A stretch of DNA of 29,184 nucleotides from a virus (taxonomy: Duplodnaviria; Caudoviricetes), in IMG/VR virus record IMGVR_UViG_3300020042_013168, positions 1 through 29,184 of that record; one strand, 5' to 3'. Every line of letters begins with the position of its first letter. The stretch's first letter is position 1. A program made the translations under genes and the position numbers. Shown here one piece after another: positions 719-26,316 of the stretch. Under the pieces are notes generated by a model. That model had not been told where the DNA came from and did not search any database. It saw nothing but the letters and a program-made list of their open reading frames with translations.

Positions 719-3529
719 TTATAGTGATTGTCTTATTCCTAAAGCTGGCATTCTCTTACGCCATAGTGCTAATATTTCTTCTTTTTCTTGAGGTTTAATT
801 TTTTGAGCGTCTAAGTATGTATTCACAACATCTGCAAATGGTCTTCTTTCTTTTTTAGCTCTAAGATACATTCCTTGTAGATTTGCATCTACTTCTTTTG
901 GTAGTAGAAAATATTCTTTATTTTTTAATAACTTTAATTTAATTAAATCTCGTATATATTGATCATCTTCCATGTACTTACCTAGATTTAGATTATCTGA
1001 GTTACCATGGGTTAGGTGTTCTATTTCGTGTCTAATAACATCTTTTAGATTCATAGAAATTTCTTCCCAAAATTCAGGTAGCATTGTAGGATCAATTTGG
1101 AAGGTTACCATAATAGCATCATCATATTCTCCTTCTGGTGAATAGTCTGCTCCTCCGTCTACTTTAAGTTTTTTAGTTCCTTGTCTTAAACCTAAGGTAG
1201 CTCGCACATCAAAACTTACATCATCCGATTCAAAAAAATCGCTAAAGCTAGAAGTTTTTTTTCCTGCTTCTACTTCTCTTTTCCAATGATTAAAAATAGC
1301 ACTGCTAACTCGATTTGTTATTGTATCGTATCTTCCTTCCGCCATAACCTTTTTTTTTGAATCACCATTTTTACTCTGTTTATCTGTCCACTCTCTAAAT
1401 GTAATGTTTCCTAATAGGTAAGCTTCTTTTTCTATTTCCTTAAGGTAATCATCCTCATTTACATTACTGGTGTTGATTTTACCACCTCCTATTCTTCCTT
1501 CTAGATTCTGAATATGATGAATCATTTCATGAGTAAAAGATCTACAAACATCTTTAGGATGTCTTCCTAGAGTGTATAGCATTACTTCCATACTGTCTGG
1601 TCTGTAGTAAGCAGTTTTTCCAAAAAAGTCATTTGCTTGTTCTGGATCTTTTTTAATTTTAATATCCGGAAGTGGTAATATATTCATTCTCTTATCAAGC
1701 ATGTATCCTAATATAGATGCAAGATACGGTGTATAATCAAAGCTATCTCCTTGCATTTCTGTTAACTTACCTTGGAATGGTGTATAGTCAAAACTTATAG
1801 GATTCTCAACTTTATTAGTTATAACTATTCTATCTTGTTGAAAGTCTACTTTAAATCTTTCATTAGGTACATATTGCTTTAGGTCGTCGTATAGTTTATT
1901 TAATTCTGCTCTATCGGCAGAAGGAATTGCAGATGATGCTGCAATAGGTGTTCCTGAAGATCCTTCTTTTACTACCTTCTTTGGGAAAAAACTTGCAAGT
2001 ACTTCATCAATTGTATCTAACATTTTATCTTCTATTGATTTTCCTACAATAATATCTCTATATTTCTGCTGATCTACTCCATCTGGTAGGTATGGTGTTA
2101 GGTCTCCTCCGGTTTTTAACGCTATTCTCACATCAGTAGCACTCAGATTCCCAGCTGCATTATCATAGTTTTTTACTTGAACATTTTCTGGTACTTCACC
2201 AAATCTACGTAGATCTTCTTCTTTACCAAAGACAGCTATATATTGCTGGTTTGGATTGGCTTTAAATATTTCGTATGCTGATACAACTGGACTTGCTGCA
2301 GGAACCGGTAGTGATGAATCGTCTGATCTAAATACTTTAACATTTGATGGTAGGTTAAGTAGTTTAAAAATCTGCAACGTCTGATCTGCAGTAACTGACT
2401 GCTCATCTTGTAACCTATCCTGTATTTTCTGTTGTTCTTTCTTACTTTTTGGATTACCTCCTGGTTCTGTTTTTGGTGATACTAAAACAATTACCTCGTC
2501 TGCATCTGCTGCTGCTGCTTTAATTCTAGCTATGTGATCTTTATGTGGTGGTTTGAATTTACCAGGAAATACTGCTATTACTTTTTGTGGTGACCCTTCT
2601 ATTGCCTCTGCTATTTGTTTGTTGGGTTCTTTTTCCGGTATGTCACTTACTGTTTTTTTGGCTTGTTGTTTCAAATTACCTTTTTCTGTACCTATTTCGG
2701 CATCACCAACATTGATGTTTTTATTAAATAATCCCTTGAAGCGTCTTATAGATCTCCCGTCTCTATCTTTAAAATTTTTTACTTTTTCTATAATTTTTTC
2801 AAAAGCATCTATAGAGTTATCGTATATGTCTATTCCTAATGTAGTTAAGATTGTAACTACATCTTTCATATTTGTAGATCTCCAAATTTGCCTTTCCTTA
2901 CCTGTCTTTCCAGGTTGTGGTGCTATATTTAAAGATAGTTCTGTTGGGTTTAAATTAAAATCATACTCCTGATCTTCCCCTGGTTGTTCTGGGTTATTTA
3001 TTCCTAGTTTTTCAAATAGGCTTTGTACCTCTTTGTCATCTAGTTCACTAAATACTGTTTTAATTAGTGCTATTGCTAATGTCTGTTTCTCGGCTGTTAA
3101 ATCTAGCATGCCATGTGTAAACTTACCCTCTTCCTTACCAATAGACACAATATTATCTATTTGTACATATTCACCATCTCTATTTGCTATTGGATATAGT
3201 GTTGATACTATATTACCATGAATAAAATACTTTTTATTACCTTTGTGTGGCATAGTTGGTATCTCATCAAGTTGTGATAAGAATTTAGCAAGCTCTTGTT
3301 TTAACTCTGTTCTGTACTTTTTGATATCACCTCCTTGTGGTGTATCCCCTTTGAATGCTAATACAATATCAATATCACCATAACTGTATTTATCTTTTCT
3401 ATTTCGTACACCAGTAATGTTATATGAGCCATCTAATCCTAGTGGCTTTAGTACATTATCTCGATAATTACGAATTGTTTGCTTTAGATTTTCTCTATTA
3501 ATTCGTGATCCTCCTGCTGCTCCGCTCAT
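719..3529 (-). CDS. 936-aa polyvalent protein: Pol-beta-fold nucleotidyltransferase + HIGH/cytidylyltransferase-like domain + two zincin-like (HExxH) domains
   Basis: ITG...SYGDIDIV plus VQIDN (NTase triad); IAVFPGKFKPPHKDH and LSATDVR (HIGH/KMSKS-like); HEMIHHIQ...EKEAY; HEIEHLTH...EVDANLQG. Confidence 0.75.
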   Translation of the reverse strand: MSGAAGGSRINRENLKQTIRNYRDNVLKPLGLDGSYNITGVRNRKDKYSYGDIDIVLAFKGDTPQGGDIKKYRTELKQELAKFLSQLDEIPTMPHKGNKKYFIHGNIVSTLYPIANRDGEYVQIDNIVSIGKEEGKFTHGMLDLTAEKQTLAIALIKTVFSELDDKEVQSLFEKLGINNPEQPGEDQEYDFNLNPTELSLNIAPQPGKTGKERQIWRSTNMKDVVTILTTLGIDIYDNSIDAFEKIIEKVKNFKDRDGRSIRRFKGLFNKNINVGDAEIGTEKGNLKQQAKKTVSDIPEKEPNKQIAEAIEGSPQKVIAVFPGKFKPPHKDHIARIKAAAADADEVIVLVSPKTEPGGNPKSKKEQQKIQDRLQDEQSVTADQTLQIFKLLNLPSNVKVFRSDDSSLPVPAASPVVSAYEIFKANPNQQYIAVFGKEEDLRRFGEVPENVQVKNYDNAAGNLSATDVRIALKTGGDLTPYLPDGVDQQKYRDIIVGKSIEDKMLDTIDEVLASFFPKKVVKEGSSGTPIAASSAIPSADRAELNKLYDDLKQYVPNERFKVDFQQDRIVITNKVENPISFDYTPFQGKLTEMQGDSFDYTPYLASILGYMLDKRMNILPLPDIKIKKDPEQANDFFGKTAYYRPDSMEVMLYTLGRHPKDVCRSFTHEMIHHIQNLEGRIGGGKINTSNVNEDDYLKEIEKEAYLLGNITFREWTDKQSKNGDSKKKVMAEGRYDTITNRVSSAIFNHWKREVEAGKKTSSFSDFFESDDVSFDVRATLGLRQGTKKLKVDGGADYSPEGEYDDAIMVTFQIDPTMLPEFWEEISMNLKDVIRHEIEHLTHGNSDNLNLGKYMEDDQYIRDLIKLKLLKNKEYFLLPKEVDANLQGMYLRAKKERRPFADVVNTYLDAQKIKPQEKEEILALWRKRMPALGIRQSL

Positions 3530-3538
3530 AGTTATATT

Positions 3539-4657
3539 TTATGTATTAACATTATCTGGTTCATATGCTTTTGCATTTTTTAATTGCTGCTTAAACATGC
3601 TTATTGCTATTTCTTTTTCTTCGTTAGTTAAGTTGTCCTTAACGTACTGCATTAGTCTATCATAGTTACGCACTATGTCCATTGTTAGTGGTTGCTTTGG
3701 TTTGTACTCTGCATTAAACACTTTTATTGTTTCTTCTGGTGTTGCTGCTACGATTTCATTATCAGCTTTTCGTATAAATCCTTTTCCACTTTTAAAAGTA
3801 TATCCTGCTGCAGCAAACATTGCTAGCATTAGTTGCCCTCTATGTAATCCTTTTATTAGTGCTTTCTTTAGATCCTCAATATTTTTTATCCCATATTTAC
3901 TAACTAGCTTATTTATATCTCTACTATCAGGATCATTTGGATTTCCATAATACTCTTTAGATGCGGCTTCTAATGTTCTTAAATACTTCTCATCTTCACT
4001 ATCGATTTTAGGTAATTCTGAGTTGTATCTGAATTTTAACCAGTCCATATCTCCGATGTCTAGATCTAGTTGAGCTCTTCCACCTGTTCCTCCTGACTTT
4101 AGGTATTGGGGGAATGAGAAGTGTATTGATCCCGCTCCTGATGCTTTATCGCTAGCGTATAGTGTTTTTGATTGTGAGTTTACTTTTTCTACTATTAGTG
4201 CTATTACTGTTCTTAGTTGCAGTTGTTCATCACTAGCAGTTTTTGCTGCTAGTCTGTATTTTGTATATAGGTCTACAAAGCTATCTTTATCGATACCCCA
4301 TCCATCTAGGTCTGCTAGTATTTGTACCTCTGTCTCATTACCTTGTTTATCTGTAAAGATGAAAGATTCTTTTGGTGTATTTAGATCAACAAAAAAATGC
4401 TTTACAGAATATGCTATATCTATGTCTCCAGATTTGAATGCTGTACCTGTTGATCCTAACCAATTATCTTTGCTATTAATAGCTTGAATTGATTCTTTCT
4501 TTTGTTTAAAAATGTTAGTTAACTCTTGTGTAAATTTTTCAATTGTGAGTTCAATATCATTTCTATCTATATCGTTTGTTTGGTATTCTGGATTATCTTT
4601 AAAGACTCCTCCACCTTCTAATACTATACTTCTTAATATTTGTGTTATTTTTATCAT
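3539..4657 (-). CDS. Pol-beta-superfamily nucleotidyltransferase
   Basis: WLGSTGTAFKSGDIDIA (GS...DxD) and distal AQLDL third aspartate; N-terminal leader MIKITQILRSIVLE. Confidence 0.72.
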   Translation of the reverse strand: MIKITQILRSIVLEGGGVFKDNPEYQTNDIDRNDIELTIEKFTQELTNIFKQKKESIQAINSKDNWLGSTGTAFKSGDIDIAYSVKHFFVDLNTPKESFIFTDKQGNETEVQILADLDGWGIDKDSFVDLYTKYRLAAKTASDEQLQLRTVIALIVEKVNSQSKTLYASDKASGAGSIHFSFPQYLKSGGTGGRAQLDLDIGDMDWLKFRYNSELPKIDSEDEKYLRTLEAASKEYYGNPNDPDSRDINKLVSKYGIKNIEDLKKALIKGLHRGQLMLAMFAAAGYTFKSGKGFIRKADNEIVAATPEETIKVFNAEYKPKQPLTMDIVRNYDRLMQYVKDNLTNEEKEIAISMFKQQLKNAKAYEPDNVNT

Positions 4658-4725: not shown

Positions 4726-5508
4726 TTAAAGTTTGATAGTAGTTGGATATGAACTAAAGATTGGTTCTGTGGTTGGGTTTTCCATTTCGTATAATCTATA
4801 GATCAATTTGAATAATTCAAAATTCTCTTCTATCTTATCTACGACTTTTAATTCCCATCCTTTTCCTTGGAATTTCTTACCGTTTTTATCTTCTCCTCTT
4901 GTAGTTGCTTTTAACCAAAGAATACCTGTTCTATCTATTTTAATTCCTTTTGCTTCTTCAATTGATTTAGCATAAGCTGCCAATTGAAGTTCATAAGATT
5001 TATGTAATGAATTTGATGTTTTAAAATCAATTAACCAAGTCTCTCCATTTATCTTACAAACGCAATCGGCTGTTCCAGCATACTTATGTATATCTGAATA
5101 AGTAAACTCTTCTGCAAAGATTAATTCCGGTTTTGCTTGTAGCCAGAATTGCTGGAATTTAATAATCATTCCCCATACAAGTTCATTGTATCTTGCATTA
5201 CCGAAATCATCCATCCAACTAATCTCTTTTCCTTCTAATAATTCTTCAATTGCATTATGGACTTGTGTACCTTCATCTCCGGCTCTTCTCATAATGATAT
5301 CGGCATTATGACCTACATCTTTTAACCAAGATTCAAAGAATCTATTCTTTGGTACATATTGTAAGATTGAGGTAACTGAAGGATAAAATACTCCTTCTGA
5401 TCTTTGGTAAACCCTTCTATCTAGAAAATTAATTTGCTTTAGTTCTGGTTTAAAATCCAGTCTCTTTTTTGCATGCTCTGTTAGGATGTTTGCTCCTTTT
5501 TGTATCAT
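4726..5508 (-). CDS. PD-(D/E)XK exonuclease (Cas4/RecB-like phage exonuclease)
   Basis: YPSVTSIL, GTQVHNAIE, YAGTADC, IDFKTS, QLAAY motifs. Confidence 0.88.
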   Translation of the reverse strand: MIQKGANILTEHAKKRLDFKPELKQINFLDRRVYQRSEGVFYPSVTSILQYVPKNRFFESWLKDVGHNADIIMRRAGDEGTQVHNAIEELLEGKEISWMDDFGNARYNELVWGMIIKFQQFWLQAKPELIFAEEFTYSDIHKYAGTADCVCKINGETWLIDFKTSNSLHKSYELQLAAYAKSIEEAKGIKIDRTGILWLKATTRGEDKNGKKFQGKGWELKVVDKIEENFELFKLIYRLYEMENPTTEPIFSSYPTTIKL

Positions 5509-5509
5509 G

Positions 5510-6436
5510 TTATGATAGTTTATAGCGAAGAAGCTTTCCTAAGTCCATTTCTTCAGCCTGTTGTACATATTGAGTGAAATTTTTAAATCCCATCTCACTT
5601 GGATCTTTGTCTTCCATATCAACTAGGTAGACCCTTTTACCCATGTTTAAAAACCTTTCTGTGTACTCTAATGCTTTTTTAAAAGCATCTTTATCAAGTG
5701 CTATGTAAATATCTTCCACCCTACTATCGACTATTTTCTTTAGTAATGATTTTGATAGTGATTTTCCTAATATCGGAACTGCATTTCTTTTAACTGCTAT
5801 TGCATCAAACACACCTTCTACCAATACAATTGGTCTATCCCAATTGATTAGATTCTCGAAGCCTATAATGTCTTTTGATGTTTCTGGATTGCGGTATTTA
5901 TTGAAAGCATTCTCATATGTTCTTCCTATAAAGAAGTTTAATTGTCCAGATTCATTATAAGAAGGTACTATTATTCTTCCTTCATAATCCCCGGAGGTAC
6001 AGTATCCTATATTATATTTTAGGAAATCTCTATCTGTAAATCCTCTCTTATATAAATAGCTTCTAACCTTGTTTGCTATAACGGAAGTATGTGATGCCGA
6101 GTGGAGTGGTTTGAATTCTTTTGGTAGTTCAACTGTATTTTCTACTTTATATCCTATCTCATCTCCCTTTCTAACATACCGTAGAATTTCATAAGCCTGT
6201 TCGGCAGGTACTTGTAATTGCTTTAGTAATGATTTAACTGTCTTTCCTTTAAATCCACATACCCAACAGGCAAAGGTATTTTCTCCTTTTTCGTTTGTAT
6301 GAAGGTTTATTTCTAGTTTTGGTTTATGATGATTGCATTTTGGACATGCAAATGCGTAGTTCTCCCTAGCTTTTTTGTGGGATTTCCCGAGTATGTTTTC
6401 TAAATAACCAAGTAGTATAGGACTTTCCATACTCAT
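5510..6436 (-). CDS. DNA primase (zinc-binding + TOPRIM); true start possibly the second Met at 6430
   Basis: CPKCNHH...CWVC zinc finger, GRIIVP, FFIGR, KYRNP, VEGVFDA, LDKDA (DxD), KDPSEM. Confidence 0.92.
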   Translation of the reverse strand: MSMESPILLGYLENILGKSHKKARENYAFACPKCNHHKPKLEINLHTNEKGENTFACWVCGFKGKTVKSLLKQLQVPAEQAYEILRYVRKGDEIGYKVENTVELPKEFKPLHSASHTSVIANKVRSYLYKRGFTDRDFLKYNIGYCTSGDYEGRIIVPSYNESGQLNFFIGRTYENAFNKYRNPETSKDIIGFENLINWDRPIVLVEGVFDAIAVKRNAVPILGKSLSKSLLKKIVDSRVEDIYIALDKDAFKKALEYTERFLNMGKRVYLVDMEDKDPSEMGFKNFTQYVQQAEEMDLGKLLRYKLS

Positions 6437-6465
6437 AATATATGAAAAAAGGCCTGTAAAAACAA
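6435..6465 (-). promoter_or_regulatory. putative Bacteroidota-type promoter TTG-N20-TATATTAT for primase/exonuclease
   Basis: TTG at 6465-6463, 20-nt spacer, TATATTAT at 6442-6435; embedded in the terminator hairpin. Confidence 0.5.
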
Positions 6466-6471
6466 GCCTTT
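6445..6471 (-). terminator. intrinsic terminator
   Basis: Minus strand AAAGGCTTGT-TTTT-ACAGGCCTTT followed by a U run (one G-U pair), just downstream of the 274-aa gene. Confidence 0.7.
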
Positions 6472-6493
6472 CTTTTATTATTTTTTACTTAAT

Positions 6494-7318
6494 TTAAACA
6501 GTATAGTCTATTACTACCATTTCCTGTTCTGTATCATATGCACTATACAATCTTCCTTTATTTGATGGAACGTAGTTGACTGTTATATTAGGGTATTTTT
6601 CCTGAATCTCCGTCTCAGCACGTTGGCTAACTATTCTTCCAATTATTTCTTCTTCATCAGATTCTTCAGTAGCATCTTCTTCATGTCTATCTATTATTTC
6701 TTCAAATTCTTGAGGAGAAATACTTTCATTTATATAATTTAAAGCACCCTCTTGTTGTTGCTCTCCACCTGGGATAATTACTGCAAACTTGCCTCCCCAT
6801 TCAGATGCTCTTGGAATATCTGGATCTCCAGGGAATGCTGATAATACTATGTATTCGTTTGGAATTACTGCTCCTGCTTCATCTTTTTTAGGTCTAACAA
6901 TTACTGTTAATTCGTTAGATGCAAATTGAGATAGTGGAGCTGTTGTTGTTACAGATGGTACTTTTATTTTATTTGGTCCTTCAACTTTTTCTACTTCTCC
7001 TTGTTTTGCTCCAGGAAGCTTTAATGCTTTATCTAATGGTAGTACTAAGTTGTATCCAATACCTGGTGATGAAACTGTTAAGGTTCCTGTTGAGTTTGCT
7101 ACTTGATCTATATTTTTAGCTCCATCTACAATCTGCTGCACAGTTTTCATAACTGTGTCAATAGGTTTTGCAAAGATTGATCCTTGACCTGGTTTACCAT
7201 GAACATCTGCTAGTTTACCTTTTAACCATTCAGGTACTTCTACTGCTTCTGCTAATAGTCTAGAGTTGTATGTTAATTTATTCTCTACTAAGAATTTTTT
7301 TAAATTAAAATTATCCAT
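6494..7318 (-). CDS. leader-bearing hypothetical protein (possible toxin-type nuclease domain + acidic module)
   Basis: Shared leader MDNFNLKKFLVENKLTYNSRLLAE; body with H..PGQGSIF, GIG and YIVLSAFPG; acidic tail after YINES. Confidence 0.7.
   Translation of the reverse strand: MDNFNLKKFLVENKLTYNSRLLAEAVEVPEWLKGKLADVHGKPGQGSIFAKPIDTVMKTVQQIVDGAKNIDQVANSTGTLTVSSPGIGYNLVLPLDKALKLPGAKQGEVEKVEGPNKIKVPSVTTTAPLSQFASNELTVIVRPKKDEAGAVIPNEYIVLSAFPGDPDIPRASEWGGKFAVIIPGGEQQQEGALNYINESISPQEFEEIIDRHEEDATEESDEEEIIGRIVSQRAETEIQEKYPNITVNYVPSNKGRLYSAYDTEQEMVVIDYTV
7247..7318 (-). repeat. shared 24-codon N-terminal leader, copy 1
   Basis: Encodes MDNFNLKKFLVENKLTYNSRLLAE. Confidence 0.95.
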
Positions 7319-7343
7319 TTTGTAATTATTTTTACTAGTTATC

Positions 7344-7907
7344 TTAATACCCGTATGACATATCCTGTTGGTTCATACTTTCAAAACCTCTTTGATCTTC
7401 TATATTATCTATCCAATCTTCTGCGTACTGATTGAATTCACTTTCTTCAATTTCTGGGTGTTGATCTAAAAATCTTTGCTTATCTTTTTCAATATAATCT
7501 TTTACTTTATCCCAATCATCTTCATCACAAGTTTCAAAAGAAGTTACTCCTGTGTACTGTCTTAGATCGTAGAAGTAATCTGCTAAAGTATCTGAGTTGT
7601 CTTCTGCTAGTGTTTCTGGATTGCTTCTTTTTAATTCTGCCAGTACAAGTTTAAATTCATCACCTTGAGGTACTACTTTATACTCTTGTCCGCCAATATT
7701 ATATACCGATCCAGCTTTGAAGTCTTGTCCATCCATTGATCCTTGTCCTAGTGCTTCTAAATCATCTGCTAGATCTCTATCATCGTAGTTGATAATTTGA
7801 TTTCCTTCTGCTCCGTTGTGGAAGTATTGCATTCCTTCTTGTAGTAGTCTAGAGTTGTAGGTTAGTTTATTCTCTACTAAGAATTTTTTTAAATTAAAAT
7901 TATCCAT
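7344..7907 (-). CDS. leader-bearing acidic hypothetical protein
   Basis: Shared leader; body is very D/E-rich with no recognisable catalytic motif. Confidence 0.7.
   Translation of the reverse strand: MDNFNLKKFLVENKLTYNSRLLQEGMQYFHNGAEGNQIINYDDRDLADDLEALGQGSMDGQDFKAGSVYNIGGQEYKVVPQGDEFKLVLAELKRSNPETLAEDNSDTLADYFYDLRQYTGVTSFETCDEDDWDKVKDYIEKDKQRFLDQHPEIEESEFNQYAEDWIDNIEDQRGFESMNQQDMSYGY
7836..7907 (-). repeat. shared 24-codon N-terminal leader, copy 2
   Basis: Encodes MDNFNLKKFLVENKLTYNSRLLQE. Confidence 0.95.
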
Positions 7908-7922
7908 TACGCTCTTACTTTA

Positions 7923-8516
7923 TTATTTATTATTGATTATTGATTCTTGCATATTAGTTCCTCCACCATCTAGTTTATCTGTGAATCCTGTAAGTTTGTT
8001 AAATGCAGGATGTGACTTGATTGGTTCTTTCTTGGTATCTTTCATTTGATCCCAGGTACTTGGTTTAATTTTCATATGATTTTTAACTAAATACTTAATC
8101 TCCTCAACATCAGTTCCATCAAATGTCTCAATCCAACTCTTAAATTGATCAATATACTTTGTTGATTCCTCTTCGTGACCGTAAGCTGTTGGTTGATTTG
8201 TTTTTGGATTAATTGCATATGTATCCATTTTACCTAAATCATGAAACAATGCTGCCATAATCATATTTGGGTCATTTGGATAATGGTGGTACGCTCTTTT
8301 TATAACAACAAGAATATGCTTTAACGTATTTCCTTCAGGATGCCATTGTGGATTCTGTTTTGCGTTCCATTGGTCAAATAGTAGTTTTTTTAGCTCTTGT
8401 GGTAGGCTCCTAATTAATTGTTCGGGTGTTGCATGGAGTTTCTCTTCACTTATTATTCTTGAATTATAAGTCAGTTTATTTTCTACCAAGAATTTTTTTA
8501 AATTAAAGTTATCCAT
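7923..8516 (-). CDS. HD-domain phosphohydrolase of the CCA-adding-enzyme type, with shared leader
   Basis: QNPQWHPEGNTLKH...AALFHDLGK...AYGHE...LVKNHM matches the WHPE..H / HDLGK / GH pattern of Cca HD domains. Confidence 0.82.
   Translation of the reverse strand: MDNFNLKKFLVENKLTYNSRIISEEKLHATPEQLIRSLPQELKKLLFDQWNAKQNPQWHPEGNTLKHILVVIKRAYHHYPNDPNMIMAALFHDLGKMDTYAINPKTNQPTAYGHEEESTKYIDQFKSWIETFDGTDVEEIKYLVKNHMKIKPSTWDQMKDTKKEPIKSHPAFNKLTGFTDKLDGGGTNMQESIINNK
8445..8516 (-). repeat. shared 24-codon N-terminal leader, copy 3
   Basis: Encodes MDNFNLKKFLVENKLTYNSRIISE. Confidence 0.95.
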
Positions 8517-8651: not shown

Positions 8652-9209
8652 TTATTTATACATATCTCTTTTTACTCCAGATACCATTTCTCTACCTACA
8701 TAAATATTACCACTAACATTTGTTGGGTTCCATCCTTTTTCGATCTCAACGAAACCACTAAACTTTAGATTTCCTCCTACTGTTGGATTAAATTCTTTAG
8801 GTACAAAGGTTACATTGGTGAGGTATAAATTTCCTCCTACTGTTGGATTAAATCCCTTAGGTATTGACGGTACGTGACTAAGGTCTAAAGCACCTCCTAC
8901 TGTTGGATTAAACCCCTCCGGTAATGGTGTTTTTACATTGTTAGCATAAAAATAGCCCTTCACTGTTGGACTAAATCCTTCAGGGATTGATTTTAAATAC
9001 CTAAGATCTAAATTACCATCTACTTTTTTCAAATCTCTTAGAATAGGTAAAGGTTCGGTTAGATCTAACATTAAAATATTTCCTTTACTTCCATTTTCAA
9101 TATACTGCTTGATTTCTCTTGTAAGTACTATTGCATGGTTCTTTTTACGTTCTTTAATACGTCTTGGAATTAGTATTTCATTTTCGAGAAGGTCTAGTAG
9201 CTTAATCAT
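8652..9209 (-). CDS. LRR-like solenoid repeat protein
   Basis: About five 20-21-aa repeats of (I/L)PxGFNPTVGGxLxL; leader MIKLLDLLENE. Confidence 0.75.
   Translation of the reverse strand: MIKLLDLLENEILIPRRIKERKKNHAIVLTREIKQYIENGSKGNILMLDLTEPLPILRDLKKVDGNLDLRYLKSIPEGFSPTVKGYFYANNVKTPLPEGFNPTVGGALDLSHVPSIPKGFNPTVGGNLYLTNVTFVPKEFNPTVGGNLKFSGFVEIEKGWNPTNVSGNIYVGREMVSGVKRDMYK
8715..9010 (-). repeat. 60-bp-period coding tandem repeat
   Basis: cctcctactgttggattaaa at 8773, 8833 and 8893, with degenerate flanking copies. Confidence 0.9.
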
Positions 9210-9952
9210 TATGAAATTCCTATAATATTTGTAAATGTTTGAATATCTGCTTTTTTTATTTGTTTATCAAGTCCATCATATCCATCTATCTTGCCATTAG
9301 GTAAAACCGCTAAAGCAACCACTACCATACTTTGCCATGTTTTTGGAAAAGCTTGCTTGAGTTGTTCGATCATTCTTTCGGACTTTACCTTAATATAGTA
9401 AAATGTTACTTTACGTGCATAGTAATAGTCATTAAAGTTATTCGGTGCTTTGTAGGTTGTACACCAAGCTGAATCCTTGCCTCCTTCACAGTCTCTGAAT
9501 GCAAAGTGGGATAGTCCTAGTTTCCTTGACGCTTCGTGAGTGTGCGGAGACGCTATTAATAAATCGGAGCTATCAATTACCACGTCGTAATCCGATTCCA
9601 AATCTCTTACAGATACTCCTTCTCCTGACTGATTTATGTCATCTACTTCTGATTGAAGTTCTTTAAATGTTTTAAATTGGTAGATATCTTTTATCTTAGC
9701 TTTTCCTTTTTCTAAGAAAGTGTTGTATTTCTCGACTGTATTTACTAAATCATCCAAGTCAGGATGTTCAGTAATCCAAATCTTAGCCATCCATCCTACA
9801 AATTTTCTAGTTGGAGTTGGATCTATTTCAATTAATGTTTTTAAATCATCGTTAGATAATTTACCACTTTGTACATACTGCTTCGCTTGCTTTACATTCT
9901 CTAGTATGTACTCCCTATTTTTTTTTAGTAGTGGTATATTACTTACTTTCAT
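9209..9952 (-). CDS. hypothetical protein with WCT...F..Y motif (possibly PcfJ-like)
   Basis: DPTPTRKFVGW and SAWCTTYKAPNNFNDYY motifs; TAATG-coupled on both sides. Family assignment is tentative. Confidence 0.55.
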   Translation of the reverse strand: MKVSNIPLLKKNREYILENVKQAKQYVQSGKLSNDDLKTLIEIDPTPTRKFVGWMAKIWITEHPDLDDLVNTVEKYNTFLEKGKAKIKDIYQFKTFKELQSEVDDINQSGEGVSVRDLESDYDVVIDSSDLLIASPHTHEASRKLGLSHFAFRDCEGGKDSAWCTTYKAPNNFNDYYYARKVTFYYIKVKSERMIEQLKQAFPKTWQSMVVVALAVLPNGKIDGYDGLDKQIKKADIQTFTNIIGIS

Positions 9953-10389
9953 TATACATCTATTATTTTAACATTTCCGTTAGCGTCTTGCATTACGTTA
10001 TCCATTCTAATTGAACCTCCAGGTCCTTCTAGATCTGGTGAGATGCCTAACTCGTCTGCTTCATCGTAAATATCGTCAATTGGAACTCTGTCAGGATCTG
10101 CTGTGTAAGGTTGTAAATTTTGCATTGTAATTATTCCTAACAATTCGTTTACAATCTCTACTTCGTATATGTAGGCAAAGTACTTTGTTGTAAGTCCTTT
10201 TATTTTCTGTGCATCCTCTAACTCCTGTGAGTCAGTAGTTACTTTTACCACTCTGTCTCCTATCAAATAAGCTGCTCCATAGTCACCCGATCCTAAGAAC
10301 TTACCTCCTTGTTGTTTTATTTTATCAACTAGGTTGTAGTAGTCTTCTGAAGGTTGAACAATTTCTTTTAATATAGACAGTATTTTCAT
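9952..10389 (-). CDS. minimal protein-kinase-fold enzyme
   Basis: Gly loop FLGSGDYGAAY, VVKVT Lys, helix-C Glu (QELE), catalytic loop DL...DNVM, terminal KIIDV (DFG position). Confidence 0.75.
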   Translation of the reverse strand: MKILSILKEIVQPSEDYYNLVDKIKQQGGKFLGSGDYGAAYLIGDRVVKVTTDSQELEDAQKIKGLTTKYFAYIYEVEIVNELLGIITMQNLQPYTADPDRVPIDDIYDEADELGISPDLEGPGGSIRMDNVMQDANGNVKIIDV

Positions 10390-10919
10390 TAGTCTAGCTT
10401 ACCTGCTCCTTTTACTGTTTTTTCCATTTTCTCTTGATCTTGCTTAGATTGTACTAAGGCAAACTTACTAAAATCTTTTCCACTATTGTACTGCTTGAAG
10501 TTGCCTTCTTCTTTAGCACTTTTGATTTTGCTTATTGCTTCTTTAGCTGTTGTTTGCTGACCTGCATGTGAGTCAAATGTTCCAGACATGGTTACTGTTG
10601 GAATAGTTACTTCAAAGTTTGGATCTAGTTGTTTTAGTTTGTCTATTAGTTGTTGTTTAGTTAAAATAGCACCTTTGTCTTCATTCATTTGGCCACTATC
10701 ACCCATTTCTAATTCACTATGTAGTACTTTCATAAATGGATCAAAGTTGTGTTTACCATAAAAATCAACTAATACAGTTGCAACTGCTTTAGCAAATTCA
10801 CTATACGAGGTATTGTCTGGTACCATTGAGCTTATGTCTCCTGCTAGTTTGTTTTCTTTTATTAGCTTAGTTTTGCCAATTTGTTCTTTTACTAATTTAA
10901 TTAGTGTTGATTTTTTCAT
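10389..10919 (-). CDS. hypothetical protein with MKKSTLIKLVKE leader
   Basis: ORF with coupled start and stop; no recognised domain. Confidence 0.7.
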   Translation of the reverse strand: MKKSTLIKLVKEQIGKTKLIKENKLAGDISSMVPDNTSYSEFAKAVATVLVDFYGKHNFDPFMKVLHSELEMGDSGQMNEDKGAILTKQQLIDKLKQLDPNFEVTIPTVTMSGTFDSHAGQQTTAKEAISKIKSAKEEGNFKQYNSGKDFSKFALVQSKQDQEKMEKTVKGAGKLD

Positions 10920-11002: not shown

Positions 11003-11281
11003 TTAGTATTCGAGTATTCTCACGTTTAAGTTACCGCTTCCTTTAATTAATCTGTGATACGTTTCTTTTGGTATAAATATGGTATCTTTTAGTTGTTGTG
11101 GGATACAGTCATCAAACTGAAATTGCCAGTCTGTTGGTTCTAGTACCTCTACTTGTCTGTCGTTTTTATCTCTGTGCCAAACTAATTCACTCTCATCTAC
11201 ATCGTCGGCAAACTTTCTATAAATGTAATCAAATGCTCTTACTTCTTGGTAGGGGCTATCGTTTAAAGTATTTGTTTTCAA
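11003..11281 (-). CDS. small cupin-fold protein
   Basis: ELVWHRD...VEVL (motif 1) and IFIPKETYHRLIKG (motif 2). Confidence 0.7.
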   Translation of the reverse strand: MKTNTLNDSPYQEVRAFDYIYRKFADDVDESELVWHRDKNDRQVEVLEPTDWQFQFDDCIPQQLKDTIFIPKETYHRLIKGSGNLNVRILEY

Positions 11282-11816
11282 AATATAGTACTTCGAAATT
11301 GTTTGAAACGTTAATTAATTGGGCTGCGTTTAATAAGTCAGAATATTCTGCTACTGACTGTCTTTGTCCTATTCTCAATTCTTGTAAGAAATCAAATGTA
11401 GCTAAACAGATTGGGAATACTTGAGTTGAGTTTACATTATATGCTGCAAATAGATCATACTCTAATTCATATGCTTTATTTACAATGTCAATTAAACTTG
11501 TAAAAGATGGTATCATTTTTACTGGTGGAATGAATGGTAGTACGTTCCAATCTACTAAGTACTTTTGTACTAAGTCTGCATGCTCTAATTCATTTGCAGC
11601 TTCTGCTTCAAAAAATGTTGCTGCTTTAAAGTATGCTTTTTCTCTACACCAGTTAGCTGCATTCTTATAAAAGTAGTGTGCTTTGTATTCATCACCAATT
11701 CTATCGGTAAGCAAGCCTACTATTTCAGGTAGTAGTTGATGTGGAGTTATAATCTCGGTTTGTTGTGCTATTTGCATTCCGTTTATTTCACCTAATTGTG
11801 TTTGTAATTTTTCCAT
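11256..11816 (-). CDS. ferritin-like protein (non-haem ferritin type)
   Basis: E..AH..Y...A.W, AATFF..A.NELEHA, AYELE, FDFLQ...Q match the FtnA-type four-helix ferroxidase pattern. Confidence 0.85.
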   Translation of the reverse strand: MEKLQTQLGEINGMQIAQQTEIITPHQLLPEIVGLLTDRIGDEYKAHYFYKNAANWCREKAYFKAATFFEAEAANELEHADLVQKYLVDWNVLPFIPPVKMIPSFTSLIDIVNKAYELEYDLFAAYNVNSTQVFPICLATFDFLQELRIGQRQSVAEYSDLLNAAQLINVSNNFEVLYFENKYFKR

Positions 11817-11833: not shown

Positions 11834-12535
11834 TTACCAATACCCGCTAAAGTTTTTACTTCCTCCTAGGGACTTCCAGTACCTTCCTATGTTGCATCCC
11901 CAATAGTTTGCAGATAGCTTGTTTTTTTCTTTATCGCATTTATGACGAGCAGCAAACGAACGTCTAGCTTTTGGATTATTTACTTTGGTTGATAATCCTG
12001 TTGTGTCTCCAAAACTAACTTTCTTTATGTTTTTAGTTTTTGGATCTTTTACGTAAACAAAAAACTTCTTAGAACCACCTCTTTTAGGTTTACCTAATTC
12101 TACATCTTTTCCTTGATACTCAGCCTCTTGTAATTTTTTCCAAGCATTAAGTGCTTCTAGATCGTATACTTGTTTTTGGTTGTCGTATCCACAGTTGTGA
12201 CATAGGGCTGGGTGATTGTCTTGGGGCTCGGGAGTCCAGTCATGTTTGCACTTTTTGCAAACTATCTCATGTTGTCCCTCATCAACCATTGGAAGATCTA
12301 AAGGTACTTTCTCTCCTTCATACATTCCGTATTCTCCAATATCAGTTGTTTCTAACAACTCAACATCTTGTTCGTTTAATTGTATTTTACCGTCTCTTAA
12401 GGCCTGTCTAGCCTCAGCGAATAGTTGGACAAAACTCTTTGAAGAGTATCGGTAGATACACTCAGACAAAGTGAGTTTGTTATCTAAGTGGTACTGTAGT
12501 GTTGGTAAACCAACTATCTCTTGTAGTTTTATCAT
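11834..12535 (-). CDS. modular hypothetical protein: acidic N-domain, zinc ribbon, basic DUF5754-like C-domain
   Basis: CKKC...CHNC; KKFFVYV...KKVSFGD...RRSFAARHKC...SANYW. Confidence 0.65.
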   Translation of the reverse strand: MIKLQEIVGLPTLQYHLDNKLTLSECIYRYSSKSFVQLFAEARQALRDGKIQLNEQDVELLETTDIGEYGMYEGEKVPLDLPMVDEGQHEIVCKKCKHDWTPEPQDNHPALCHNCGYDNQKQVYDLEALNAWKKLQEAEYQGKDVELGKPKRGGSKKFFVYVKDPKTKNIKKVSFGDTTGLSTKVNNPKARRSFAARHKCDKEKNKLSANYWGCNIGRYWKSLGGSKNFSGYW

Positions 12536-25442: not shown

Positions 25443-25852
25443 TATTGTTCAAAATTAATTACTAATTGGTCTTGTATGTTTGTAAATTTTACACTGTAGG
25501 TCATGAAGACTGTTACTGTATTTGTGTCGGGAGATGCTTGTACTTGTATGGTTTTTATTTGTACGTTTGGAAACCACATAGAGATTCCTGATCGTATTAC
25601 GCCCTCTATTTCTCCTCTTTTATCCTCTGTCATTTGATCGAATAGCAACGCTCTAAGCCCTGCTCCTAAATCTAAATTCAAAAATCGTTCACTTTTTTCA
25701 GTTAATAAAAAGTTAATTAAATTGGATTTTAGTGCGTCTTGAGTTGTGTATGTAGAGTTAAATACAGATGTAGAAGAGAATGGTAATCCCACTCCTACTG
25801 CTTTTCTTGGTTGTAAATCTAATGGATGTATTCTCTCTACTTGAAATGCCAT
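25442..25852 (-). CDS. baseplate gp25/GPW-like sheath initiator
   Basis: LKSNLINFLLTEKSERF...GAGLRALLF...WFP; directly upstream of the gp6-like gene. Confidence 0.88.
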   Translation of the reverse strand: MAFQVERIHPLDLQPRKAVGVGLPFSSTSVFNSTYTTQDALKSNLINFLLTEKSERFLNLDLGAGLRALLFDQMTEDKRGEIEGVIRSGISMWFPNVQIKTIQVQASPDTNTVTVFMTYSVKFTNIQDQLVINFEQ

Positions 25853-26316
25853 TATCCTCCGAATTTCTGTTTATCCTTCTCTACTGATGCTTTGTATACT
25901 GATGCTGCTTTTTTAACAAAATCAAATTGTGATATGTCTAATCCTGGTTCTGGTCTTGCAAAATTTTCTTCCATCATTGTTGGTTGATCATATGATTGCA
26001 TGCCTAATCCTGGTGCTTGTACCATTTGTGACATGTCGGGTCGGTATCCACCACCTCCCTGATTTACCATTTGTGCTCTTGTTTCTTGCAGTAAATCAGC
26101 AATTGGATCTCCTGTTGAGATAGGTGCTTTATATGTACTTACAACTGGTTTGTGTTCCTCGTGTTTAGTGAAGCTTCTATTTGGTACTCCATATCCTCCC
26201 TCACCTATTGCTGTCTTAGTGGGTTTAGTTGGTTCCGATAAAATCTCATCTAAGGCATCTTTTACTGCTTCTTGGACGGCTTCTTTTATTAATTTTTTTA
26301 AAAGTTCTACTTTCAT
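25852..26316 (-). CDS. hypothetical protein with MKVELLKKLIKEAV leader
   Basis: Coupled ORF; amphipathic N-terminal helix, low-complexity middle, DPIADLLQET motif. Confidence 0.7.
   Translation of the reverse strand: MKVELLKKLIKEAVQEAVKDALDEILSEPTKPTKTAIGEGGYGVPNRSFTKHEEHKPVVSTYKAPISTGDPIADLLQETRAQMVNQGGGGYRPDMSQMVQAPGLGMQSYDQPTMMEENFARPEPGLDISQFDFVKKAASVYKASVEKDKQKFGG

Follow-up and report, generated by a model that had tools for sequence, protein, structure and literature searches.

Results

Three tandem genes share one leader

The window, by which we mean the whole 29,184-nt stretch of DNA that was analysed, belongs to an uncultured freshwater phage, and this 29 kb contig is the whole record. 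All genes of the stretch lie on the minus strand, in the order baseplate genes, a variable stretch ending C-B-A, a terminator-like hairpin, and then primase and exonuclease. The features at the C-B-A end are the following:

6445..6474, minus strand: terminator-like hairpin 3' of gene A (a consensus match only), closing the co-oriented run from the baseplate genes
6494-7318, minus strand: gene A ORF, 274 aa (leader, A1, INE198, A2)
7247..7318, minus strand: gene A leader, 24 codons, with aliphatic-x-Glu sites at E12 and E24
6761..7246, minus strand: module A1, residues 25-186, predicted BECR/RNase-toxin-like or DUF3228-like fold
6497..6724, minus strand: module A2, residues 199-274, acidic, after the junction INE198 (6725-6727)
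7344-7907, minus strand: gene B ORF, 187 aa (leader, B1, LAE91/LAE102, B2)
7836..7907, minus strand: gene B leader, 24 codons
7635..7835, minus strand: module B1, residues 25-91, ending in LAE91
7347..7601, minus strand: module B2, residues 103-187, acidic, after LAE102 (7602-7604)
7923-8516, minus strand: gene C ORF, 197 aa (leader, C1, MQE191)
8445..8516, minus strand: gene C leader, 24 codons
7956..8444, minus strand: module C1, residues 25-187, predicted HD-domain metal-dependent phosphohydrolase, then MQE191 (7944-7946)

The 20-residue N-terminus MDNFNLKKFLVENKLTYNSR is identical in genes A, B and C, as an earlier note on this DNA had claimed, and is followed by LLAE, LLQE and IISE, respectively; a second aliphatic-x-Glu site, LVE12, lies within the leader. 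Also as that note had it, the A and C leaders differ in 8 of 20 codons (9 nt) with every change synonymous, and the same holds for B and C (8 codons, 8 nt). With approximately 10 synonymous and 47 non-synonymous sites, and ignoring transition bias, the probability of all 8-9 changes being silent is about 1e-6 to 1e-7. Between the leaders of A and B just 2 of the 60 nt differ, so that the stretch offers one independent comparison rather than three. On this sequence evidence, the leader is conserved as a peptide. The bodies behind it appear unrelated, with best pairwise BLASTP E values of 1.1 and 0.84 and one B-C match of 36 residues (E 0.003) that spans the border between two modules and that we attribute to chance.

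Promoter-like sites in the stretch number 14 against 29.7 expected by chance, i.e., below chance, and an Rfam search of the stretch returned no match.

Source phage and relatives

The closest cultured phage to this stretch is Flavobacterium phage immuto (vB_FspM_immuto), which has a T4-type head; identity to immuto is 72.8% for the baseplate wedge and 88.6% for a neighbouring gene, which points to a Flavobacteria-type bacterium as the host. The nine sequencing runs that hold at least half of the sampled words are all freshwater metagenomes, and in the single RNA run 0.05 of the sampled words were present. After immuto, the cultured phage nearest in baseplate and scaffold is Microcystis phage Mel-JY01 (PP395634.1), an odd host assignment for a lineage otherwise tied to Flavobacterium.

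Since the 29 kb contig itself has no head module, head genes were read from relatives. A gp21-type protease is found in immuto (E 5e-30) and in 47 relative loci, and the site IVSE/A of the immuto capsid protein aligns with Glu65 (E65) of T4 gp23, for which the available part of one source gives a propeptide of 65 residues (PMC5694885). All 41 capsid proteins in the alignment, out of 67 available, keep the Glu of this site. Elsewhere in immuto, the region L127:18607-37015 carries queuosine/7-deazaguanine DNA-modification genes together with a phage GroEL/GroES pair; modified immuto DNA would plausibly make Type IV restriction a target for injected cargo.

Spread of the leader and its Glu site

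The leader was searched for as a DNA pattern for 14 codons. Viral contigs hold at least 130 leader stretches (55 of 64 parts scanned; ~140 estimated in all) and metagenome contigs at least 127 (26 of 64 parts scanned; ~320 estimated in all), with 1-4 matches in each of five large viral records. Among 185,579 prokaryote genomes there is one match, on a 7-kb contig with immuto-like genes; a cellular origin was set aside, this sole prokaryote match being taken as a mis-binned phage contig. This contig (PBPJ01000018.1, our L210), filed in a Woesearchaeota MAG, also carries several leader variants and is probably a mis-binned phage fragment. Compared by tblastn with 50,697 phage records, the leader matched only the four immuto records.

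The leader extends well beyond the three bodies at this locus, as the proposal of a portable tag had anticipated: viral loci and this stretch together hold at least 123 distinct proteins (140 ORFs) in ~68 body clusters, although many of the viral loci in the clustering reach only 114 residues and cluster 1 looks chained. The suggestion of a protease site also gains from this set, as [ILMV]xE ends at residues 15-26, a position not fixed by the scan, in 121 of 123 leader proteins, compared with 21/122, 25/121 and 30/115 (17-26%) in control windows. Site positions are mostly residue 17-18 or 23-24. No Pfam family was matched by any of 45 leader proteins picked across clusters. The bodies are on average acidic (D+E 0.18, K+R 0.12), the D+E/K+R values being 0.16/0.10 for gene A, 0.23/0.09 for B and 0.13/0.14 for C. 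In immuto, 10 of the 84 late-region ORFs carry a leader against 2 of the remaining 136, twelve in all, and its leader-bearing proteins include gp003, gp076, gp083, gp092 and gp095. None of the 326 proteins of tail, baseplate, portal and replication that were surveyed has any of the five leader patterns; these patterns were derived from the same data in which they were counted.

Leader classes match the ends of head-module proteins

Domain starts respect the Glu site closely. All of the best 120 of 271 A1 homologs start exactly after an aliphatic-x-Glu, and among the best 120 of 248 C1 homologs, 20 of which were dropped for missing upstream residues, 71/100 do so exactly and 87 within 3 residues against a background of 9%. 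The distant A1 homologs (118, with 23 dropped) are at background, with 9/95 starting right after a site and 13 within 3 residues (background 10%), which limits the rule to the near family. Some of these distant homologs (P0263-P0357) have other leader-like ends, in part K/R-x-A-S-like, which suggests that the A1 domain has reached phages whose protease recognises other sites.

The leader type varies over a single domain family. Across 116 rows of the A1 tree, 83 leaders are of the RMQKLAG (scaffold-tail) type, 20 of the same type as genes A-C, 2 of the IKL type and 11 other; the genes A-C type needs 6 changes on this quick tree, of which at least 3 are forced by strong branches. The tail that this most common type copies belongs to a scaffold-like acidic protein, encoded by the gene before the capsid gene, that ends in R[MWF][QK]xLA[GN]I in 69 of 70 cases (79 loci gave 71 rows, one of them a mis-assigned capsid ORF). 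An HMM built from the scaffold tails only matches the N-terminus of 70/120 A1 homologs and 2/120 C1 homologs, with 0 matches in reversed sequences. The core motif of the genes A-C leader, in turn, is found in all 28 distinct proteins of the gp077 family (50 loci), whose gene lies just before terminase and portal; the motif is N-terminal in 26 of these, occurs twice in 17 and forms the last residues in 11. Both main leader classes thus resemble the ends of conserved head-module proteins, and leader variants are also found between the protease and scaffold genes.

The description of the leader as a unit about twice the T4 length does not survive these observations, with 32 of 121 leaders ending at residue 17-18 and the core alone standing at the C-terminus in those 11 gp077 proteins. 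From the sequences, the functional core of the leader seems to span ~10-12 residues, whose register matches that of the T4 tag.

Two neighbouring genes of the window have leaders of different classes:

9952..10389, minus strand: IKL-type leader, ending in LKE9
10389..10919, minus strand: KKS-type leader, with sites VKE12 and IKE22

Several further genes (120-704, 3539-4657, 8652-9209, 9209-9952, 11834-12535 and 25852-26316, minus strand) begin with 6-20 hydrophobic or basic residues ending in aliphatic-x-Glu; this set includes a 5'-nucleotidase (NT5C), and its members are candidates for further tagged cargo. A 936-aa protein (719-3529, minus strand) has an NMN adenylyltransferase-like middle (PHROG E 8.5e-7) and is polyprotein-like, with aliphatic-x-Glu between apparent domains, and immuto gp088 is laid out alike.

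Two head-region proteins of immuto also deserve mention. One, gp067 (L129:37626-38867), bears the annotation 'DNA polymerase phi-like', but its position, charge and site density make it the likely prohead scaffold. A conserved, unannotated 284-aa protein encoded right after the portal (L131:5318-6172 / immuto gp073) may be part of the core and act as the receptor of the leader. When the leader was modelled in complex with the capsid protein and gp073 of L131, the score was 0.00, which favours no reading.

Modules are the unit of exchange

The swapping of cargo proposed in the earlier note gains support, but the unit of exchange is the module, of which the three genes contain five, and not the gene. 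In relatives, the fusions A1-B1 (17), A1-B2 (12), B1-A1 (11), A1-A2 (6) and C1-A1 (5) occur, with other orders once each. No more than 6 residues separate a site from the module start in 31/31 cases for B1, 18/18 for B2 and 6/6 for A2, and the two coincide in 16, 4 and 6 of these, respectively. Of four freshwater or crustacean runs, three have contigs that join the A1 end to the B1 start, and one has a B1-A1 joint; at a likeness of 85 these contigs may be from relatives rather than the same strain. A joint skipping exactly gene B is not among the joints listed (15 of 27). Contig depth over leaders in three runs is ~600-1900 vs. 20-60, a value that sums many organisms and is not a copy number.

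The observed/expected ratio of internal sites is 0.22 in A1, 0.15 in B1, 0.72 in C1 and 0.89 in B2, while head proteins give 2.62 for the capsid propeptide (mature part 0.79), 2.11 for gp073 and 1.48 for the scaffold. Since terminase (1.44) and GIY-YIG (1.7) are also enriched and the tail protein gp106 (0.27) is depleted, this density test is unspecific, and the homologs are moreover non-independent.

Cargo identity

C1 matches Pfam PF01966 with 28.4 bits (cut-off 22), and its metal-binding set H43, H68-D69, H90, H123 and D159 is invariant in 33 rows, so that by sequence C1 is predicted to be an HD-domain metal-dependent phosphohydrolase; against PDB sequences it has no match at E 0.01. The A1 fold is predicted with a pLDDT of 95, and its best structural match is 5e3e_B, an RNase-type CdiA-CT (Z 6.8, rmsd 3.5, 95 aligned), followed by 2pd0 (Z 5.9) and then CdiA, YxiD, MafB and RelE-ParE chains; a Z below 8 may reflect a common arrangement. 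Foldseek gives DUF3228-type structures with a best E of 5e-3, and the Atlas leads (PF11539 in 11% and PF18431 in 49% of cluster members) agree with the structural matches. From the modelled fold, A1 is predicted to be an RNase-toxin-like (BECR) domain. Its residues H16, S23 and F25 are invariant. The single match of the A1 profile to PDB sequences (E 0.99) was discarded as chance, and A1 has no match in the 50,697 phage records. Genes A and B have no match in Pfam or PHROGs, and the Atlas search with gene B gave no usable match, all TM values being <0.5.

A variable slot and a possible recombination anchor

Between gp099/GIY-YIG and the primase lies a slot that, across 15 loci, holds 45 genes of 26 families; the loci were fetched by their leader and are biased accordingly. 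A gene for a ferritin-like domain (11256-11816, minus strand; Pfam E 4e-15) sits in this slot and is absent at that place in immuto. One relative, L044, is 98.4% identical over 5478-7319 and has gene C directly followed by gene A, without gene B. What it lacks is

7271..7859, minus strand: ~589-bp segment (gene B body and spacer) absent from L044, both ends inside leader repeats

Gene A of L044 has the upstream DNA of B (11/12 nt vs. 7/12), a leader that is 64-65/66 nt identical to that of A or B, and the body of A (297/300). The C region of L044 is only 87.5% identical. Gain and loss are alike possible, and one codon misfits a single crossover. Because this indel ends in leader repeats, it lends weight to the suggestion of the earlier note that the leader DNA also acts as an anchor for swapping.

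Discussion

Proposed function of the leader

Judged by its distribution, the leader is phage-restricted, stands on many unrelated bodies, is interchangeable with other leaders and marks module junctions. We consider it probable that it serves as a capsid-targeting propeptide and belongs to a combinatorial, larger-scale version of the T4 internal-protein system. During head assembly the leader would dock onto the protein core and carry the attached modules in, and a T4 gp21-type prohead protease would then cut it off after the aliphatic-x-Glu (the cleavage consensus of gp21 is I/L-x-E) and would also split the fused modules apart. The freed modules would probably be injected into the next host and may act there against host defences, with A1 as an RNase-like domain and C1 as a phosphohydrolase. 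As the cargo genes all share leader DNA, recombination between leader copies likely gains, loses and swaps cargo.

The leader could also direct proteins to the prohead without these being injected effectors: its bearers might be core or filler material, as gp67/gp68 are in T4, or passengers that get broken down or stay behind in the head. The bodies are acidic, the motif is native to the conserved, acidic and site-rich gp077 family, many leader genes lie inside the head module, and the lack of a Pfam match in 45 leader proteins is in line with this as well. A1 and C1, however, are well-conserved globular enzyme-like domains with invariant His and few internal sites, and a slot as polymorphic as 26 families in 45 genes at 15 loci suits conflict better than assembly, so that we regard this alternative as unlikely. 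Distinctly less probable still is an address to a target outside the head, for instance the phage-encoded GroEL/GroES chaperonin or a protease of the host, with the Glu sites reflecting helix composition. It is true that immuto encodes both GroEL and GroES, that the N-terminus of a T4 head protein reportedly directs proteins to GroEL (according to the title of one study in the reference list of PMC10052503), and that aliphatic-x-Glu is common in helices, as the terminase ratio of 1.44 illustrates. Such an address leaves unexplained the exact Glu register at module starts and junctions and the interchange with the scaffold-tail copy, and tail and replication proteins also need folding, yet none of the 326 proteins surveyed has a leader.

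It is very improbable, in our estimation, that the repeat is a DNA-level cassette end, i.e., a translation start or recombination site spread by duplication, and that the peptide is functionless. The near identity of the A and B leaders (2 of 60 nt), the one indel ending in the repeat, and the higher nucleotide identity of leader copies within a locus than between loci (0.85 for 12 pairs vs. 0.79 for 1203 pairs) would all be expected of such a cassette; the A/C and B/C differences, though, are all silent, and over codons 15-24 of 50 leaders pS is 0.55 vs. a pN of 0.23 (biased low by three pattern-fixed positions). Moreover, the DNA upstream of 73 leaders has no conserved motif beyond A-richness, Rfam has no match in the stretch, and the motif also occurs internally and C-terminally in proteins. 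To the last alternative, that genes A, B and C are diverged paralogs of one family, we give next to no weight. The earlier note had raised this as one of the outcomes that would undo its reading, and the tandem position and the weak local B-C match (E 0.003) speak for it, but the bodies are without credible BLASTP similarity, the predicted folds differ (HD domain in C1 vs. a beta-rich, BECR-like A1), and the modules occur apart and in reversed orders.

Relation to known systems

The nearest comparison for a capsid-targeting leader is the CTS of T-even phages. In the available parts of the sources, these phages are described as having diverse internal proteins whose only common part is the CTS, at variable loci and working as restriction inhibitors (PMC3012670, PMC12373910), and the CTS of IPI-IPIII is removed by the prohead protease gp21 (PMC9026906, PMC3012670, PMC12373910, PMC9958956, PMC5694885). 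As far as one of these accounts goes, residues 4 and 7 of the T4 CTS are important in targeting and residues 8 and 10 in its processing, LIE-9 is an example of a T4 site, and T4-type internal proteins are basic (PMC9026906). The leader described here is likewise a short N-terminal peptide on unrelated bodies that ends in aliphatic-x-Glu and is found in polymorphic gene slots, in a lineage with a T4-type protease and capsid cleavage site (as read from relatives), and it has the same hydrophobic-x-x-aromatic-aliphatic-x-Glu register (Y4, F7, I8 and E10 in MKTYQEFIAE of T4 vs. L6, F9, L10 and E12). This six-residue hydrophobic pattern is the sole resemblance in sequence, with no homology. Unlike the T-even CTS, the leader has two sites (E12 and E17-25) and comes in several interchangeable classes, one identical in motif to a scaffold tail, while the genes A-C class is native to a conserved head-adjacent protein; the motif is also internal and C-terminal, and the cargo consists of shuffled polyproteins. 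The bodies are acidic and enzyme-like, and where T4 has three IPs, immuto has 12 or more tagged ORFs. By analogy, then, the leader system would work like the T-even CTS, and is not a member of it by sequence or charge; what it would add is a set of leader classes that copy the ends of core proteins and can replace one another, together with shuffled polyproteins and cargo resembling enzymes.

Other systems share single aspects. For SPN3US gp53/gp54 and phiKZ-like propeptides, the accessible text describes an identical N-terminus on diverged head proteins that is cleaved after Glu by the prohead protease (PMC5694885, PMC10052503), with paralogous bodies, long propeptides and A-x-E sites in place of the unrelated, swapped bodies seen here. 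In P22, according to the portion available, a C-terminal segment of the scaffold carries foreign protein into the capsid (PMC9962691); these fusions are engineered and place the scaffold piece at the cargo C-terminus, whereas here the copy is natural, N-terminal and probably cleavable, the analogue being the scaffold-tail leader, a sister class of the genes A-C leader. Phage polyvalent proteins and MuF-fused effectors are, in what is available of their description, variable multi-domain proteins proposed to be head-packaged and including BECR RNase domains (PMC5512222). The modules here differ: they are small, meet at sites of the prohead-protease type and carry short peptide tags, and Pfam finds no MuF or metallopeptidase domain in genes A-C or the 45 leader proteins.

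Implications

The papers covered by our search, mostly from outside the subscription journals, contain no description of a leader system for this phage group, nor any virion proteomics or data on cleavage or binding for the members of the leader family. A cultured pair is available in immuto and Flavobacterium sp. LMO8. The mechanism that localises proteins to the T4 core is called mysterious in the accessible text of a 2023 review (PMC9958956), and tags that copy the ends of scaffold and core proteins would explain it in a way open to direct test. The head, proposed here as the place of the leader proteins, is where the anti-restriction proteins of T4 are kept.

The broadest form of the proposal, to which we attach somewhat less than even confidence, is that Flavobacteria-type myophages possess a combinatorial library of injected effectors, in which helices from core-protein ends would serve as tag, protease site and recombination anchor, and RNase-like, phosphohydrolase and dozens of other modules would be shuffled into polyproteins, loaded into the head, cut to single domains and delivered at infection. 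If the capsid-targeting reading is right, a short tag would pick out by sequence many unannotated head-carried proteins of an abundant aquatic phage group and would constitute a natural peptide toolkit to load proteins into capsids.
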